A DNA stretch of 6,218 nucleotides from a virus. Its lineage: Duplodnaviria > Heunggongvirae > Uroviricota > Caudoviricetes. The stretch is taken from IMG/VR virus record IMGVR_UViG_2531839579_000022. One strand, written 5' to 3'. The notes under the pieces were generated by a model that worked only from the letters and a program-made list of their open reading frames with translations, was not told the origin of the DNA and did no database searches. Positions 1,616-6,218 of this stretch are shown piece by piece. The position numbers and the translations under genes were made by a program. The number at the start of each line of letters is the position of its first letter. The stretch's first letter is position 1.

Positions 1616-1647
1616 CGCCGGTTGCAGAATACCAGTCACAACCGGCG
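1616..1647 (-). promoter_or_regulatory. GC-rich hairpin in the exonuclease-xis intergenic region
   Basis: 9-bp perfect stem CGCCGGTTG (1616-1624) paired with CAACCGGCG (1639-1647), 14-nt loop, no adjacent U-tract on either strand. Sits between the exonuclease stop (1659) and the xis start (1589). Confidence 0.3.
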
Positions 1648-1658
1648 ATGGTTGAACA

Positions 1659-2447
1659 TTAAAAATCAGCCTGACTCGGGATCAGTTTTTGTATCGTAGC
1701 TGTAACGTATTTTGCCTGGTGACGGGCGTCATCCAGTGCATTGTGGCGCACGCCTTCGAATGGAATAACGGTTCTGGCATCAAAGTCGATTGTTTTTCCC
1801 AGCTCAACGATTGTGCGTACATCGCGATCGTTGTGGTAGCGCCACGGGCAGGGGATGTCCAGACGTTCGTATGAGGTGCGCAAAATTGCGTTATCGAAAG
1901 TCGCACCATTACCCCATACCTGAACGAATTTTTCATCTGAGTATTCGTTGATGAACTCCCGAAACTGCGAAAGGGCATCCTTCAGTTTTACCTGGTCTGT
2001 TAAAATGGCAGCTCTGGCTTCACTGGACTGCTTCAGCCACCATTCGATGGTTCCACCGTCAGGAACAGCCCCTGTATTCATTGCGTCAGTCAGACTGATA
2101 ACGATATAAAATACTGGCCCGATTTCCCCTGTTTGTGGGTCGAAGAAAACCGCACCAATAACCACGATGGGCGCATTGGTGTTGGTTCCCATTGTTTCAA
2201 GGTCGATCATCAGGTGGTACCACACTCTGCTGGTGGATGTGATAACGTGATGACCGTTCACCGAAATTAAGGAATCTGCCGTCTCGCCAGTTTCACTATC
2301 GCTGGCGTGGTCCTGAGCGCTGCCAGCATTCTCCTTGTGTGGATGTTCAGCGCCTTCCATTTTCTCCGAATCGTCTTCCTGAACTTCAACCTGGTTCTTG
2401 TCATCGAATGTTTCCTGGTATGTTGCGTCGCCCATCACCGCCCACAT
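1659..2447 (-). CDS. DEDDh-family (DnaQ/RNase T-like) 3'-5' exonuclease with an acidic N-terminal extension
   Basis: ORF of 262 aa. Exo I motif in [11 protein letters not shown] (D-x-E after a beta-strand); Exo II-like [12 protein letters not shown]; Exo [16 protein letters not shown] (His plus Asp, DEDDh type). The start is uncertain. ATG 2447 overlaps the upstream ORF by 47 nt and has a poor SD. ATG 2360 (MEGAEHP...) has GGAG 3 nt upstream and no overlap. A start at Met80 (2210) is excluded because it would remove the beta-strand before D-x-E. Confidence 0.8.
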
Positions 2448-3378
2448 CAGGGCAGTTGCCGCCCCGTCTGCCGCAGGCGGTGCAGATCTTTTCCGGTTCC
2501 TGTTGCCACTGGTTCAGGTGTTTCGTTTCTGGCTCGTTTTGTAACGCATTTGGGCTGTTTTGTTCCGCTTTCTGGTAGTTCCGTTCCGATTCATGCTGGT
2601 TCTGGTTTACAGAATCGCGGGTCTGGATCCCCTTAACCCATTTCGGATCATTCGGGTCGCTAATCCCTGCAACAAATTCTCCGCGAGAGGCAGCAAGCAA
2701 CTTATCGGCGTCAGGCTGGCTGATATTGGCTGCCTGCATAATTTTGTTTACTTCGTCAGCGGTAACTTTTACCGGCCCTGGTTGTGCGGTCGTGTCAGAT
2801 GCACCAGTATTTTGTTGTGAACCTGAGTATGTACCGTTTTTGCGGGCGAAATATTCTTCTTTCGTGATTTCAGTAGCCCCGGCAGCCAGTGCCTTATCCA
2901 GACCAGAAAGTTTGTTTGCGCGACCGTATTTTTCGCCATCCTTGTCGGTGAAGAGGAAGTAGAACGGCCCCTCACGCTCTACAGATGGTTCGACTTCCAC
3001 TTTGCATTCGGTTTTTTCGTTGTCCGGAATTGCCGTTTCCACTGCATCAGTTTCTGGTACTGGCGACGAGAGAGTATCAGTTGCGATCTGATTTGTTCCT
3101 TCATCTTCAAACACGCCCTTTGTAGTCAGGTATTCAGTAATGTATTTGTTCAGTACCACAGGGTCTTTGTGAATGTCGATCGGACGCTCACGGACAAGGC
3201 CAAAAATAGTCTGGCGGTCGTAGCGAAGGGCATCAGGCTGTTTGCGATTGATGCGAGATACGCTTCCAGTCTTCGCGGTCGTTGTCGATAACTTCATTTT
3301 TTGCCCAGCGATGGATGCTGCCGTCAATGTTTCCGGCATCCACATCACCAGGCCAGAGAGCGTAGGCCAGTTCATCAT
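2401..3378 (-). CDS. Hypothetical prophage protein with Q/N/E-rich tail; likely the C-terminal segment of a larger frameshift-disrupted gene
   Basis: ORF of 325 aa in the track. The sequence from about residue 45 onward ([40 protein letters not shown]...) looks like genuine protein. The first ~44 residues ([38 protein letters not shown]) are low quality and overlap a better-looking reading frame (track ORF 3233..3493). See the frameshift finding. Function unknown. Confidence 0.5.
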
Positions 3379-4127
3379 CCAGTGTTTTCCATGTCTGCTT
3401 GTATTCGCGACGAATGGCGCAGTGACAGGGGGATTTTTCCTGTTGAGTTTTCAGTGTTCTGCCGGTTGACTCTGGCGTAGGCGAGATCAACAACAGACGT
3501 GTATTTCCCGGTTTCTTTGCGTTCGGCTTCGCGACGTTTTTTCCAGGTGCGTAATTCTGTCTGGATCTCAGGCCATTTTGCGCCCGGCTTACATTTATGT
3601 TTAACCCACCCGATGGCGAACAGCTTTAGTTCTGAATACATGACGTTAACTTCAGGCATTTTCATCAATGCTTCAACGATATGCCCGTCGAATGTTGCCA
3701 TGTCTTCCTGCAACAATTCCTGTGCGCTAATCACCATATCAACGGTGATGTTTTCACATGTACCGAACTTAACCAGGACCGCGTTCTGTACTTCAAGGGA
3801 CAGCTTGTCAAAATTGACGTTCATCGGATCGGATTCTGGTTCGACCGGAATAAAGGAAGCGGATTCCTCATCCCAGCGGTTTTCCTGCATATATTCAGCA
3901 TCCCAGGAATCGAGGGCAGGGCGGGGTATACCGGGTTTATCCTCGCAGACAAGAAATTTATAAGCGCAGTCCTGAGCAGCCGGATAATGTTCCAGGAATT
4001 GCCAGTGAAATTTTGCGCGGGCGCGACGTTCATCACCGGCTTCAATGGCAGTGGCTACAGCGACGGCACCTTCTTCCTTTATTGCCTGTTCGTCCGGAAT
4101 GGCGGCGCAAATAAAGACTTTACTCAT
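3375..4127 (-). CDS. Hypothetical prophage protein; likely the N-terminal segment of the same frameshift-disrupted gene (occupies the ydfE position of the Qin dicB operon)
   Basis: ORF of 250 aa. ATG at 4127 is preceded by GAGGT with an 8-nt spacer. Protein-like composition through about ...YARVNRQNTENSTGKI, then a junk-like tail ([18 protein letters not shown]) that starts at a G5/C5 homopolymer (plus 3428-3432). Directly downstream of the ydfD-like gene in the operon. Confidence 0.6.
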   Translation of the reverse strand: MSKVFICAAIPDEQAIKEEGAVAVATAIEAGDERRARAKFHWQFLEHYPAAQDCAYKFLVCEDKPGIPRPALDSWDAEYMQENRWDEESASFIPVEPESDPMNVNFDKLSLEVQNAVLVKFGTCENITVDMVISAQELLQEDMATFDGHIVEALMKMPEVNVMYSELKLFAIGWVKHKCKPGAKWPEIQTELRTWKKRREAERKETGKYTSVVDLAYARVNRQNTENSTGKIPLSLRHSSRIQADMENTG

Positions 4128-4206
4128 TTTGTTTTACCTCATTACAGATTTAAGGGTGAACAAATCCCTGCCATTGCTGGCATGTAAAAATGAAACTGGA
4201 TATTAA

Positions 4207-4410
4207 TTACGGCGCTGTTTTTAATCCTGCCGGGATTTCGTTATTATCCATGCGAATAACTTTCTCGACCGGATAACAGTTACCAGGAATTTTCTGTTCT
4301 GCTGCGGCAGCCATACATTCTTTCATTGAACCATATATACCAGTAACCACATCAACAGGTTCGCCAGTATTAAGAAAAACAGTCAGAGTGAGGGCAACAG
4401 CAGTATTCAT
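4207..4410 (-). CDS. ydfD: Small membrane protein, YdfD-like (Qin prophage lysis protein family)
   Basis: 67 aa from the ATG at 4410. That ATG overlaps the dicB stop as ATGA (stop 4407-4409, start 4408-4410). SD AAGGA sits 8 nt upstream. The N-terminal hydrophobic segment MNTAVALTLTVFL is consistent with a single transmembrane helix. Size and position directly after dicB match K-12 ydfD (63 aa). The track's longer 85-aa version starting at 4464 has no usable SD. Confidence 0.6.
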   Translation of the reverse strand: MNTAVALTLTVFLNTGEPVDVVTGIYGSMKECMAAAAEQKIPGNCYPVEKVIRMDNNEIPAGLKTAP

Positions 4411-4595
4411 TGCCAGTATCCTTTTTGCATCGGGCGTAAACGTGCCAGCATTGAAAGAATGCATATTTTATTTAATAGCTCCCGTTCGTGTTTTCTCTTG
4501 TTAATGGCATCTTCAGTAAATACAGGGTTACTGATAGTGACACCAATTTCAAAACAACCTTCAGACGTATTAACGTTTGGTAATAACGTTTCCAT
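4407..4595 (-). CDS. dicB: Cell division inhibitor DicB
   Basis: 62 aa from the ATG at 4595, preceded by GAGGA with a 7-nt spacer. The sequence METLLPNVNTSEGCFEIGVTISNPVFTEDAINKRK...LNKICI.SMLARLR matches my recollection of K-12 DicB (62 aa, MinC-dependent division inhibitor). The track ORF 4407..4691 extends upstream to a GTG but has no SD there. Lies about 180 nt downstream of the DicF-like terminator, as in Qin. Confidence 0.82.
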   Translation of the reverse strand: METLLPNVNTSEGCFEIGVTISNPVFTEDAINKRKHERELLNKICILSMLARLRPMQKGYWQ

Positions 4596-4612
4596 TATCG
4601 CGTCCTCAACAA

Positions 4613-4774
4613 TGAATTTTGTGATGCGGTGCCTGGTGCCTCCAGGTGACGTTAACCAGTTAATAATTAACGCCGGATACAGAGAACCCACCCATAAGAA
4701 CCAATACGGAAGTCAACTGGCCTTTTTAACTGTTCCGCGTGCGCTGAGCCGCATTCACCGCATCACAAAATTCA
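4613..4774. repeat. Perfect 19-bp inverted repeat (TGAATTTTGTGATGCGGTG / CACCGCATCACAAAATTCA) enclosing a 124-nt spacer
   Basis: Left arm 4613-4631 and right arm 4756-4774 are exact reverse complements; the bases immediately outside both arms do not pair. Located between the DicF-like terminator and the dicB SD. The spacer holds a CCTGG-N5-CCAGG hairpin and a 13-bp palindrome GTTAATAATTAAC (4659-4671). Confidence 0.85.
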
Positions 4775-4778
4775 CTTT

Positions 4779-4821
4779 AAAAGGGGCGGGTATCATGGGA
4801 AAAACAAAACGGATACCCGCC
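4779..4821 (-). terminator. Putative Rho-independent terminator (3' end of DicF-like RNA)
   Basis: 10-bp perfect GC-rich stem (plus 4785-4794 GGCGGGTATC paired with 4812-4821 GATACCCGCC) with a 17-nt loop. On the minus strand it is followed by CC-UUUU (plus 4779-4782). The U-tract is short and the loop long, so termination is probably partial. On the plus strand it is followed by A-rich sequence, so it is not a plus-strand terminator. Confidence 0.45.
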
Positions 4822-4835
4822 AAAAGGTAATCAAC
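4779..4835 (-). ncRNA. dicF: DicF-like small RNA (ftsZ-repressing sRNA family), diverged variant
   Basis: Minus-strand sequence ...UUGAUUACCUUUUGGCGGGUAUC-CGUUUUGUUUUUCCCAU-GAUACCCGCCCCUUUU. The 5' part (UUUGGCGG.UAUC.GUUUU) resembles my recollection of K-12 DicF (..CGUUUGGCGGUAUCAGUUUUAC..). Position is between the ydfC-like gene and dicB, as in the Qin dicB operon. Ends in a GC stem plus U-tract. The 5' end is not determinable from sequence, since in K-12 it is made by RNase E processing. Confidence 0.55.
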
Positions 4836-5161
4836 ATGGGTTGTTGCAGCGGGATTGTCACTCAGGCGTATGGTCAACCTGACAACCCGGTGGACATTTG
4901 CGAGGAACGGAGAACCCCCGCCATACTTACCGCCGCGCCATTTCGCGGAGTGCCACAACCGGAAGCGCACGGTCGACGAAAATTTAACGACAGGCTATCT
5001 ATGAACCAGCAACCTCGCCGTGCGCTTTCGCGTTATGCTCTGACTTTTCAGAGAAATATCCTTTCAGTAAACTGTCAGTGCCGGATGCTCACCCGTGTCC
5101 GGCGCACACACTCCACCTCACCCGTGGAGAACTCCTTAATTACCAACCCTCAGGAGGGTGA

Positions 5162-5395
5162 ATGTTAAAATCAACGCTTATTGCTAAATGCCTTTATCAA
5201 AATCGCATGGTAAGCAGCATTTCAATAGGCGAGTCTGCAGTTAAAAGTATTTTCGAAGAGTACTTTCCCGGGCATGATTTTAATAAATGGAATACCAAAT
5301 TACCGCCAGCAGTTTCAACGCGTATTCTGAAAGCAACTGAAAGAGCAAGTACAATTCGCGTTAACTATTTCATTAAAGATTTGTGGGATCTTTGA
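5162..5395 (+). CDS. Hypothetical small protein (77 aa); the only plus-strand gene candidate, convergent with the 135-aa ORF
   Basis: ATG at 5162 is preceded by a strong SD AGGAGG (5152-5157) with a 4-nt spacer. AT-rich coding region, in contrast to the GC-rich segment directly upstream. Not hydrophobic; no recognisable motif. Its 3' end overlaps the 3' end of the minus-strand 135-aa ORF by 23 nt (5373-5395). Real coding status is uncertain. Confidence 0.45.
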   Translation: MLKSTLIAKCLYQNRMVSSISIGESAVKSIFEEYFPGHDFNKWNTKLPPAVSTRILKATERASTIRVNYFIKDLWDL

Positions 5396-5780
5396 TATCC
5401 ACAGAGCCTAAAGTATGTGCATATGGATGTGCTATTGTGCGCCCTCGCAGATTTGCATCATTTTCTAAATTCACTGAACGAAACAGGGCATCAACAAGGC
5501 TCTGTACAATGCAAAGGCAATCGAAGACTGTCGCCGTTTCTGTTTTGATTGATGAAAGAACATGGCCATTCACGCAAACAGAAATTACCCGTTTATTAAC
5601 ATCGCTTTCCTGCTTTTGATTATCAGAACCATATAGCCCTGAAAAAGCATTGCGCACATTACGAACCATATTATCGATGGTTTCTTTTTTGGTGTATGCC
5701 GGGTCAATTTTCACCAGACTATCACCGAGTGTCGTTGCAGCAATTATCTGGATTTCTTTTGGTAAATCTTTAAATTCCAT
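5373..5780 (-). CDS. Hypothetical protein (135 aa), no counterpart recalled in the K-12 dicB operon
   Basis: ATG at 5780 is preceded by GAGG with a 6-nt spacer and lies 22 nt downstream of the stop of the 72-aa ORF, so it is operonic. Soluble-looking sequence with no transmembrane segment and no recognisable catalytic motif. Moderately AT-rich. Confidence 0.6.
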   Translation of the reverse strand: MEFKDLPKEIQIIAATTLGDSLVKIDPAYTKKETIDNMVRNVRNAFSGLYGSDNQKQESDVNKRVISVCVNGHVLSSIKTETATVFDCLCIVQSLVDALFRSVNLENDANLRGRTIAHPYAHTLGSVDIKDPTNL

Positions 5781-5802
5781 TATTAGCCTCGTTGGTTAAC
5801 CA

Positions 5803-6021
5803 TTAACGTGGGTATGTAATCATTCTGGCAATGCTTAATGCCGCTGCTTTTTCCAGATTGGTGATATCCTGCTCCAGAGCGGACAGATTTTCAGCCTGCT
5901 TAGCCCTGGCTTCATTGGCCCATTTCAGGTCCTGCGCAGCCTTAATTTTCTGGTGCATCCACTCATAAAGTTCATCATCGGTATAGTCTGGCGCGATGAT
6001 GACGGGTTCTCGTTTCTGCAT
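5803..6021 (-). CDS. Small hypothetical protein (72 aa), YdfC-like by size and position
   Basis: ATG at 6021 is preceded by GAGGAA with a 5-nt spacer. Predicted helical, coiled-coil-like sequence (KIKAAQDLKWANEARAKQAENLSALEQDITNLEKAAALSIARM). Same size as K-12 YdfC (72 aa) and in the same operon position; the sequence itself is not recalled, so no symbol is assigned. Confidence 0.55.
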   Translation of the reverse strand: MQKREPVIIAPDYTDDELYEWMHQKIKAAQDLKWANEARAKQAENLSALEQDITNLEKAAALSIARMITYPR

Positions 6022-6050
6022 ACTGATTCCTCGCGGTGCTGCTTCGCTTA

Positions 6051-6179
6051 TCAGCCGTTAGATTTTGCCGGGCTGGAAAGCGCCTGTATAAACTCACTGA
6101 AGCTGAGAGTTTCTTCGCCTTTGGCAAGGCCTTCGAAGTATTCTTCGTAAGCCTTTTCCATGATTGTGTCGAAATCCAT
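6051..6179 (-). CDS. Small hypothetical protein (42 aa), YdfB-like by size and position
   Basis: Not in the ORF track because it is short. Minus-strand ATG at 6179 is preceded by AGGTGAG with a 5-6-nt spacer; the protein is MDFDTIMEKAYEEYFEGLAKGEETLSFSEFIQALSSPAKSNG, ending at TGA 6051-6053. The frame stays open upstream to the window edge (VPVAGWKETQVSD), so a longer gene running out of the window cannot be excluded. Size equals K-12 YdfB (42 aa). Confidence 0.4.
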   Translation of the reverse strand: MDFDTIMEKAYEEYFEGLAKGEETLSFSEFIQALSSPAKSNG

Positions 6180-6218
6180 ATCACTCACCTGAGTTTCTTT
6201 CCAGCCAGCGACGGGCAC

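Follow-up and report, generated by a model that had tools for sequence, protein, structure and literature searches.

The DNA analyzed here, referred to below as the window, is a 6,218-nucleotide (nt) stretch of a Caudoviricetes record (IMG/VR IMGVR_UViG_2531839579_000022) and corresponds to the left arm of a Qin/Rac-like lambdoid prophage. Its minus strand carries, in order, a ydfC-like gene, an open reading frame (ORF) of 135 amino acids (aa), a block at 4836–5161, a DicF-type small RNA (sRNA), dicB, a DUF1482 gene, an exonuclease gene, xis, and int. The block, which is the subject of this work, belongs to the repressor-controlled ydfABC-dicF-dicB operon, in which it immediately precedes, on the same strand, the 5′ end of the DicF-type sRNA. 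DicF was among the first bacterial sRNAs to be described; it blocks cell division and feeds into the control of virulence in enterohemorrhagic Escherichia coli. By sequence comparison, we establish that the minus strand of the block specifies a conserved folded RNA domain obligatorily coupled to an sRNA plus terminator, and that a duplex located upstream, P0, overlaps with helix P1, which closes this domain.

An initial annotation, made from the letters of the window, had described the block as GC-rich, dense in hairpins, and devoid of credible ORFs. The G+C content is indeed 55.2%, versus 46.4% for the window and 38–45% for the flanks, and ranks in the top 0.2% among the 326-nt segments of the window. 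The motifs listed in that annotation are all present: the hairpins GCCGGA/TCCGGC (5080–5085/5098–5103) and CTCCAC/GTGGAG (5111–5116/5124–5129), the 10-nt direct repeat CTCACCCGTG (5088–5097 and 5117–5126), and the hairpin CCGCG/CGCGG. The last one had been misplaced at 4934–4948 with a 5-nt loop; its arms lie at 4933–4937 and 4944–4948 and are separated by 6 nt. Compared with dinucleotide shuffles, the block contains 10 perfect 5-bp hairpins versus 4.1 ± 2.5 (P = 0.03) and three 6-bp hairpins versus 1.1 (P = 0.12), and a 10-mer direct repeat arises by chance in 2.9% of the shuffles. The folding energy of a 391-nt region is better than that of shuffled sequences on both strands (z = −2.2 for the minus and −3.9 for the plus strand). 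Evidence from the single sequence is thus suggestive: the local motifs are mildly above chance, and the strong signal comes from the comparison of homologs.

A conserved pseudoknotted domain 5′ of DicF-type sRNAs

The comparison with the ydfC-dicF spacer of the K-12 Qin prophage, which the initial annotation had proposed, proved to be the key test: the block is homologous to this spacer, with 87–88% identity. The corresponding interval in MG1655 (1649041–1649382) carries no annotation. The core of the block (4839–4965) is present in 4266 of 5426 complete E. coli genomes, at 8581 places and in up to eight copies per genome, with no annotated feature among the matches listed. One copy, in strain 120899, is 100% identical over 4700–5400 and adjoins potC and potD. 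The most widely shared piece, approximately 4839–4960, is also found in cdtI and Stx2c phages and in phages P1 and P7, whose records label it "dicF-like region." In phage P1 (AF234172/AF234173), this 102-bp feature overlaps the 3′ half of the domain and the terminator; it is a similarity note, and the similarity lies mainly in the domain, not in DicF proper. The domain was detected in 499 plasmid records, most of them near the size of phage P1 (~90–120 kb), and, in a scan of one genome per species, in Escherichia albertii, Escherichia ruysiae, Citrobacter, Trabulsiella, and Erwinia tracheiphila.

Covariance model R1, together with covariation, defines a 117-nt structured domain on the minus strand (4843–4959), consisting of four helices and a pseudoknot. 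The closing helix P1, GUUGUGGC with GCUGCAAC (4952–4959/4843–4850), encloses three arms: P2, the hairpin CCGCG-AAAUGG-CGCGG (4933–4948); P3, GGU with ACC (4929–4931/4889–4891), which bears the hypervariable hairpin P3b (4900–4920); and P4, a long hairpin (4851–4888). In the 6-bp pseudoknot, GUAUGG from the internal loop of P3 (4921–4926) pairs with CCAUAC from the loop of P4 (4868–4873). The window copy scores 137.8 bits with R1 (E = 3e-41), and the model detects exactly one copy per locus in 100 loci. The CCGCG/CGCGG hairpin of the initial annotation is therefore the P2 arm of a conserved and covarying domain; the closing helix, the variable hairpin, the pseudoknot, and the P0 duplex described below were absent from that annotation.

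The fold was evaluated on two alignments, A2 with 32 non-redundant copies and A3 with 80 distinct copies fitted to the covariance model. In A3, 97.5% of the cells pair, and changes on both sides are observed for 11 of the 39 pairs, versus 4.7 in shuffles, none of the 500 shuffles reaching the observed value. When the partners were slid by one to three columns, at most five pairs with both-sided changes were obtained. A MAFFT alignment, made without reference to the structure, agrees with this result. Hairpin P3b shows at least ten different stem sequences around a pyrimidine-rich loop with a UCC/CUCC motif. For the pseudoknot, one pair is U-A in 73 sequences, U·G in four, and C-G in three, the last belonging to the phage P1 lineage; this covariation appears limited, with few events, yet coherent. 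The loops and the pseudoknot are near-invariant from E. coli through Erwinia prophages to phage P1. A second pseudoknot, between the P3b loop (UCCUU) and the GAGGA that follows, was considered and rejected, as it is missing in the window, in the phage P1 version, and in other variants.

Two features of the alignment bear on coding capacity and strand. Among close relatives, the segment containing P3b ranges from 25 to 31 nt in steps that are not multiples of three, which rules out coding and, with the covarying stems, supports the reading of the block as free of credible ORFs. In addition, G·U pairs occupy 109 cells of the domain alignment and A·C only 19, so that the functional RNA corresponds to the minus strand of the window, as does DicF. 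The block is thus real, non-coding, and GC-rich, with its function on the DicF strand, and its designation as the precursor region 5′ of DicF is supported both by the K-12 alignment and by the G·U bias.

The domain is followed by a 17-nt A/U-rich single-stranded linker (4826–4842, minus strand). It was located by alignment with K-12, from which it differs in sequence, and matches the K-12 linker, at the end of which RNase E generates the 5′ end of the 53-nt DicF. Next come the DicF-type sRNA and its intrinsic terminator (4779–4825, minus strand), identified by alignment with K-12 dicF, an inverted repeat, and a terminator scan; the terminator stem (4812–4821/4785–4794) precedes a U tract. The assignment of a DicF next to the block is thereby confirmed, in the form of a DicF-type sRNA. 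The Rfam DicF model (RF00039), with which K-12 dicF scores 76.7 bits, has no match in the window even at E ≤ 10. The window sRNA is a variant different from K-12 DicF and shares with it only the constant frame UUUGGCGG...CCGCCCUUUU around a variable interior. Similarly, the lambdoid types have a constant frame UUUGGCGG...CCGCCCUUUUU and a hypervariable interior, which suggests that the sRNA is a diversifying cargo of the domain.

The coupling between the two is obligatory in all copies sampled. Using a pattern restricted to DicF, we collected 127 K-12-type DicF copies, and the domain is located upstream of all 127; a strict domain motif recognizes 125 of these, and the remaining two are one base off. 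Conversely, a terminator-like hairpin with a U tract is found 35–117 nt (median 68) past helix P1 in 95 of 95 distinct downstream contexts, representing 136 copies. In phage P1, the terminator stem differs (GCCCA/UGGGC), whereas the domain is unchanged. We therefore rejected a pairing of the domain with the sRNA seed, or of its GGCGG with the 3′ arm of the terminator, because the domain does not change with the cargo or with the phage P1 terminator, both of which vary.

In E. coli strain A34 (NZ_CP028741.1), a tRNA-like gene occupies the cargo slot. This 78-nt gene (3087–3164 of the extracted locus, minus strand), annotated by PGAP as "tRNA-OTHER," has a CCA end and is flanked by the domain on one side and by what is left of a DicF-type terminator on the other. 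ARAGORN predicts no tRNA in the window and does not call the A34 gene either. A tRNA-like nature of the domain itself was discarded, since the PGAP feature falls in the cargo slot and not in the domain.

The P0 duplex and the distal stretch

An inverted repeat and minimum-free-energy folds define P0, an imperfect duplex of about 20 bp with a 45-nt loop, at 4954–5037 on the minus strand (5′ strand from 5037 to 5018 and 3′ strand from 4972 to 4954). P0 forms in the minimum-free-energy folds of the 140 nt upstream of the domain in the window (z = −2.5). Five sequence-divergent lambdoid types contain a P0 in the same register, overlapping GUUGUG, with compensating sequences, as illustrated by CAUAACGCGAAAGCGCACGG with CCGUGCGCUUCCGGUUGUG and CACAACGAUGAGAGCAUUG with CAGUGCUCUCUUCGUUGUG. 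Across these types, the loops range from 25 to 128 nt, the energies from −25 to −36 kcal/mol, and the z values from −2 to −5. Because the 3′ strand of P0 holds GUUGUG, which is also the 5′ strand of helix P1, P0 and P1 are mutually exclusive.

RNase III processing hairpins are found in the early region of T7, in the lambda sib/N leader, and in rRNA precursors. P0 resembles them in being an imperfect duplex of about 20 bp within an early transcript of a phage, where a cut would part the upstream mRNA from a downstream RNA, and it is a candidate RNase III site. Unlike them, its 3′ strand doubles as a strand of helix P1, so that cleavage is predicted to trigger refolding. In K-12, RNase III seems to stabilize the upstream ydfA mRNA (PMC10448788). 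A boxA-like sequence, GUGCKCUY, lies just 5′ of helix P1 and raised the idea of a boxA/nut site, which was abandoned: the sequence is the 3′ strand of P0. The boxA, boxB, and N combination of lambda-type nut sites does not apply here, the boxA-like site being in the P0 duplex and no N-like ORF being found after the early-left promoter PL in the loci inspected.

The 5′ strand of P0, CGCGAAAGCGCACGGCG (5016–5032), and the P2 region, CGCGAAAUGGCGCGGCG (4931–4947), are direct repeats with 82% identity and may derive from a partial duplication. The sequence CGC-GAAA-GCG could fold into a small tetraloop hairpin in place of P0. Three loci (L134, L148, and L153) have a deletion between direct repeats CGCGAAA, one in the 5′ strand of P0 and the other in P2. 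The deletion takes out one strand of each helix, the 3′ strand of P0 and the 5′ strand of helix P1, so that these copies are probably dead.

Further upstream, the block contains an untranslated distal stretch (5038–5161, minus strand) that aligns with K-12 Qin, where it starts directly after the ydfC stop codon. It is specific to Qin-type prophages and is missing in the cdtI and phage P1 versions. Four simple hairpins can be drawn in it (5146–5159, 5111–5129, 5080–5103, and 5038–5053, minus strand). Among 32 distinct Qin-type sequences, the sole compensatory change in the stretch affects the hairpin at 5038–5053 (CUCUGA/UCAGAG vs. CCCUGA/UCAGGG). The hairpins at 5080–5103 and 5111–5129, two of the three listed in the initial annotation, are conserved without covariation in these sequences, the changes falling in loops or producing mismatches; together with the direct repeat, they belong to this Qin-specific part and not to the domain. 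One locus (L009) has a 29-nt deletion between the CTCACCCGTG repeats. A small ORF of 10 codons after AAGGAG was rejected because its GUG start is not conserved. We observed no sign that the distal stretch is more than a 3′ untranslated stretch.

Maturation of the precursor and alternative roles

That the region is the precursor of DicF and that a 190-nt intermediate exists are already known. In K-12, the 5′ end of a 190-nt DicF requires RNase III, and this species builds up once RNase E is inactivated (PMC10448788); the 5′ end of the 53-nt DicF requires RNase E (PMC10448788; PMC5069750). These observations confirmed the species of Faubladier et al. (1990), and both RNAs accumulate in stationary phase (Ragunathan et al. 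2023, PMC10448788). The main ydfA-containing transcript stops at the dicF terminator, and read-through was seen solely with RNase E inactivated (PMC10448788), which indicates that termination is efficient in K-12. By homology, the K-12 locus is the same as that of the window, whose block aligns with the ydfC-dicF spacer. The searchable papers on the 190-nt DicF, including that of Ragunathan et al., treat it as a processing intermediate and print its sequence; they neither describe a secondary structure or a pseudoknot nor mention conservation or an occurrence beyond Qin-like prophages, and the supplement of PMC10448788 uses neither the word "hairpin" nor the word "stem." Full-text literature searches (by sequence and by P1/ban/dicF) retrieved no description of the domain. 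The conserved pseudoknotted fold, its spread to phage P1 and other genera, the obligatory exchangeable cargo, and the P0/P1 overlap are undescribed in Rfam 15 and in the searchable literature; Faubladier et al. (1990) and the phage P1 genome paper lie beyond that search and may hold a drawn structure.

The Rfam scan advocated in the initial annotation matched no family, be it of riboswitches, ribozymes, EAR, C4, tRNA-like, or other RNAs: with Rfam 15, the domain has no match at E ≤ 1 in the window, K-12, phage P1, or cdtI, and 401 nt searched at E ≤ 10 gave chance-level matches alone, with E values of 3 or more. For annotation, this means that a domain present in about four-fifths of complete E. 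coli genomes is missing from the reference collection of RNA families.

The lengths of the K-12 species can be placed on the fold. Counting 190 nt back from the dicF 3′ end leads to MG1655 position 1649245, inside the 3′ strand of P0 and 6 nt ahead of helix P1, whose 5′ strand is 1649251–1649258 and whose 3′ strand has its end at 1649365. Between that end and dicF, which starts at 1649382, lie 16 nt. According to this mapping, the 190-nt species would consist of the domain, the linker, and DicF, its RNase III end would fall about 137 nt upstream of the DicF 5′ end, and the two published species would match P0 and the flanks of the domain. In the window, a homologous P0 of about 20 bp is located at the expected place; the cleavage itself is known for K-12.

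These data suggest that the block is the untranslated 5′ part of a DicF-type sRNA precursor, transcribed, as we propose, from the repressor-controlled early-left promoter of the prophage, and that the domain acts as a pro-domain for ordered maturation by RNase III and then RNase E. We prefer this explanation and give it an even chance of being right. In the nascent transcript, P0 would form first and hold the 5′ strand of helix P1. RNase III would then cut P0 and generate a "pro-sRNA" with a 5′-monophosphate, made up of the domain, the linker, and the sRNA, which in K-12 would be the 190-nt species. After the cut, helix P1 would close and place the new 5′-monophosphate end beside the linker. 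Finally, RNase E would cut the linker, releasing the mature sRNA and leaving a free domain. The refolding from P0 to P1 is predicted from the shared strand. The initial annotation had offered a structured RNA and a processing substrate as possibilities, and both find support. If the pro-domain gates maturation, the level of active DicF depends on a structured RNA that has never been mutated.

The sRNAs CpxQ, SdhX, and SroC, which derive from 3′ untranslated regions, share the intrinsic terminator of their mRNA, and RNase E makes their 5′ end in an A/U-rich single strand (PMC9438474). The DicF-type sRNA resembles them, as well as sRNAs or tRNAs released from polycistronic precursors, in sharing a terminator and in its A/U-rich linker, the putative RNase E site. 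To our knowledge, sRNAs of this type require no conserved structured domain beside the cleavage site. Here, in contrast, the domain is obligatory and moves between phages with exchangeable cargo.

Several points weigh against the proposed maturation pathway. The first concerns the fold: in the single sequence, the folding energy of the core (130 nt) is no better than that of shuffles (z = −0.2 to −0.6). The RNase III site was placed by means of a reported length and is uncertain by approximately 10 nt. P0 is missing from copies of the phage P1 type, which begin some 40 nt past Pban. A role of the domain in guiding or gating RNase E is our inference, and we know of no other sRNA derived from a 3′ untranslated region for which RNase E requires such a structure. 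The most serious objection is that a plain scaffold would have no obvious need of near-invariant loops and a pseudoknot, a pattern that suggests a specific binding partner.

More broadly, the domain may represent a new class of phage RNA devices rather than a passive spacer, although we hold this to be less likely than not. Its compact, pseudoknotted fold would be read by a conserved host machine (RNase E, RNA polymerase, or an RNA chaperone), either licensing the release of an interchangeable sRNA or tRNA-like cargo or modifying the polymerase, and the device would be switched on by the RNase III cut that frees the closing-helix strand. The finding belongs with processed sRNA precursors or RNA elements of phage early leaders. 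As the domain travels between lambdoid prophages and phage P1 with exchangeable cargo, it would constitute a portable "sRNA launcher," possibly useful in engineering.

The domain could itself be the product, as an autonomous functional RNA that binds or titrates a host protein or regulates targets through the pyrimidine-rich, anti-Shine-Dalgarno-like loop of P3b, the DicF-type hairpin having begun as its terminator and become a variable sRNA later. The phage P1 unit does look like a stand-alone gene, with a repressor-controlled promoter, a leader of about 40 nt, the domain, a terminator, and almost no sRNA body. In K-12, the processing sites lie close to both flanks of the domain, as for a precise excision, and the 190-nt species is stable in stationary phase (PMC10448788). 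The domain is far more conserved than the cargo, and UCC/CUCC is kept in the P3b loop while the stem changes freely. Nevertheless, this loop is too inconstant to define a single target, no target or partner is known, and a free domain species of about 130 nt is unreported, although the published blots used DicF probes (PMC10448788). We consider this explanation improbable, but DicF may have grown out of the terminator of the domain, as the gene-like layout in phage P1 and the precise excision in K-12 would allow.

The genomic context raises a different question, namely how phages lacking N and the ban operon of phage P1 get past the strong terminator that follows the domain. The gene directly upstream of the domain encodes a cI-like repressor and has the same orientation in cdtI and Stx2c phages, in the Citrobacter, Trabulsiella, and Erwinia loci, and at two others. 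In cdtI and in an Stx2c phage, this gene is followed by a recognizable PL-like promoter, and in all these loci the leader from the repressor gene to the domain, 300–900 nt long, contains no sizeable ORF. No N-like gene was found in the repressor-linked loci inspected. In phage P1, the domain is located about 40 nt past the C1-controlled promoter Pban and is followed by a strong terminator, tRNA genes, and ban. The constant position 35–117 nt before an intrinsic terminator, with operon genes beyond, would suit a cis-acting antiterminator that, as nascent RNA, binds RNA polymerase and lets it pass the sRNA terminator and escape Rho on the long untranslated leader, thereby allowing expression of dicB, the exonuclease gene, xis, and int, or of ban in phage P1. 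The invariant unpaired nucleotides would suit a conserved host partner such as RNA polymerase.

The model for such an element is put of phage HK022, where putL and putR are likewise cis-encoded structured RNAs in the early operons of an N-less lambdoid phage, with a repressor-controlled promoter upstream and terminators downstream. HK022 put suppresses pausing and termination via the β′ zinc-binding domain; for the present domain, it is the genomic context that is suggestive. The architectures differ: put consists of two stems in about 70 nt, with a copy in each early operon (PL and PR), whereas the domain comprises four helices and a pseudoknot in about 117 nt and occurs once per locus; in cdtI, the PR side has no copy. 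With filters off, R1 matched neither putL (~2813–2740, minus strand, of the HK022 immunity region) nor putR (~3955–4025) at E ≤ 10, in a search made in this one direction. A resemblance to put noticed by eye (a CGAA.GGCGCG hairpin and UAA..AUG) was lost in the covariance-model search. The HK022 region has no Rfam match, hence no put family exists in Rfam. Moreover, P0 would sequester the 5′ strand of helix P1 during transcription, and unlike for put there is no evidence of read-through for the domain, the dicF terminator being efficient in K-12 (PMC10448788). Antitermination is in our view distinctly improbable.

Covarying stems, invariant junctions and loops, a peripheral hairpin of variable length, a pseudoknot, and then an intrinsic terminator also give the domain the look of a riboswitch. 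It would then be an aptamer-like sensor whose state, set by a ligand or condition, determines either termination at the sRNA terminator or the access of RNase E to the linker, in line with the accumulation of DicF in stationary phase (PMC10448788). However, inspection revealed no alternative (antiterminator) pairing with the 5′ arm of the terminator, and no expression platform is visible; the terminator stem of phage P1 differs while the domain is the same; no Rfam riboswitch matched; and a phage early operon offers no hint of a metabolite. A sensor is in our view highly improbable.

A function of the plus strand, as a non-coding RNA, as the promoter region of the 77-aa ORF (5162–5395), or as its leader, the last suggested in the initial annotation, is very unlikely. 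The plus strand folds slightly better and a good Shine-Dalgarno sequence of this ORF stands right past the block, but K-12 and most homologs keep the block without the ORF, no promoter-like site occurs in the block, and pairing drops from 95.7% to 88.5% when the domain is read as plus strand, G·U pairs becoming A·C mismatches. Finally, absence of function (decayed coding sequence, a foreign-DNA remnant as also envisaged initially, or chance hairpins) deserves almost no credence: the single-sequence hairpin density is just mildly over chance and the prophage is decaying, with a broken exonuclease gene, but compensatory changes in five helices and a pseudoknot, conservation across genera and in phage P1, length changes that are not multiples of three, and the coupling to DicF in all 127 copies count against it, and the covariation refutes the foreign-DNA remnant.

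Neighboring genes and other features

In Qin-type prophages, the domain comes after ydfABC; in the window, a pair of ORFs is inserted between them as well. These two ORFs, of 77 aa (5162–5395, plus strand) and 135 aa (5373–5780, minus strand), are convergent, overlap by 23 nt, and represent an insertion between ydfC and the block relative to K-12. Neither has a Pfam match. Early transcripts of the minus strand must cross the 77-aa ORF in antisense orientation.

The exonuclease gene of the window (1659–4127, minus strand) is broken up into three ORFs (250, 325, and 262 aa) that overlap one another, and it contains 13 in-frame stops compared with the intact coding sequence of 823 aa in strain 120899. 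Over 1616–6218, the window is 94.1% identical to this strain, with 29 gaps, and positions 1–1615 (int/xis) are unmatched. The window thus has the appearance of a mosaic prophage in decay.

The spacer between the DicF-type terminator and dicB (4618–4772, minus strand) has a weak match to the Rfam family STnc100 (33.5 bits for a gathering threshold of 47; E = 1.5e-4). The same match is found in K-12 (34.4 bits) and, partially, in phage P1. In cdtI (~2340–2445, minus strand, of locus L005), in locus L188, and in other cdtI-type loci, a long inverted repeat, ACAAAACAGAGAAGAGCA ... UGUUCUUCUCUGUUUUGU, lies directly past the sRNA terminator and could be a second RNase III site on read-through transcripts. 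Phage cdtI also carries, at 4892–5080 (plus strand) of the same locus, matches to the Rfam families isrK (60 bits) and C4 antisense RNA (68 bits) beside a putative antirepressor gene; this region is an immI-like module of the phage P1 type in a lambdoid phage.

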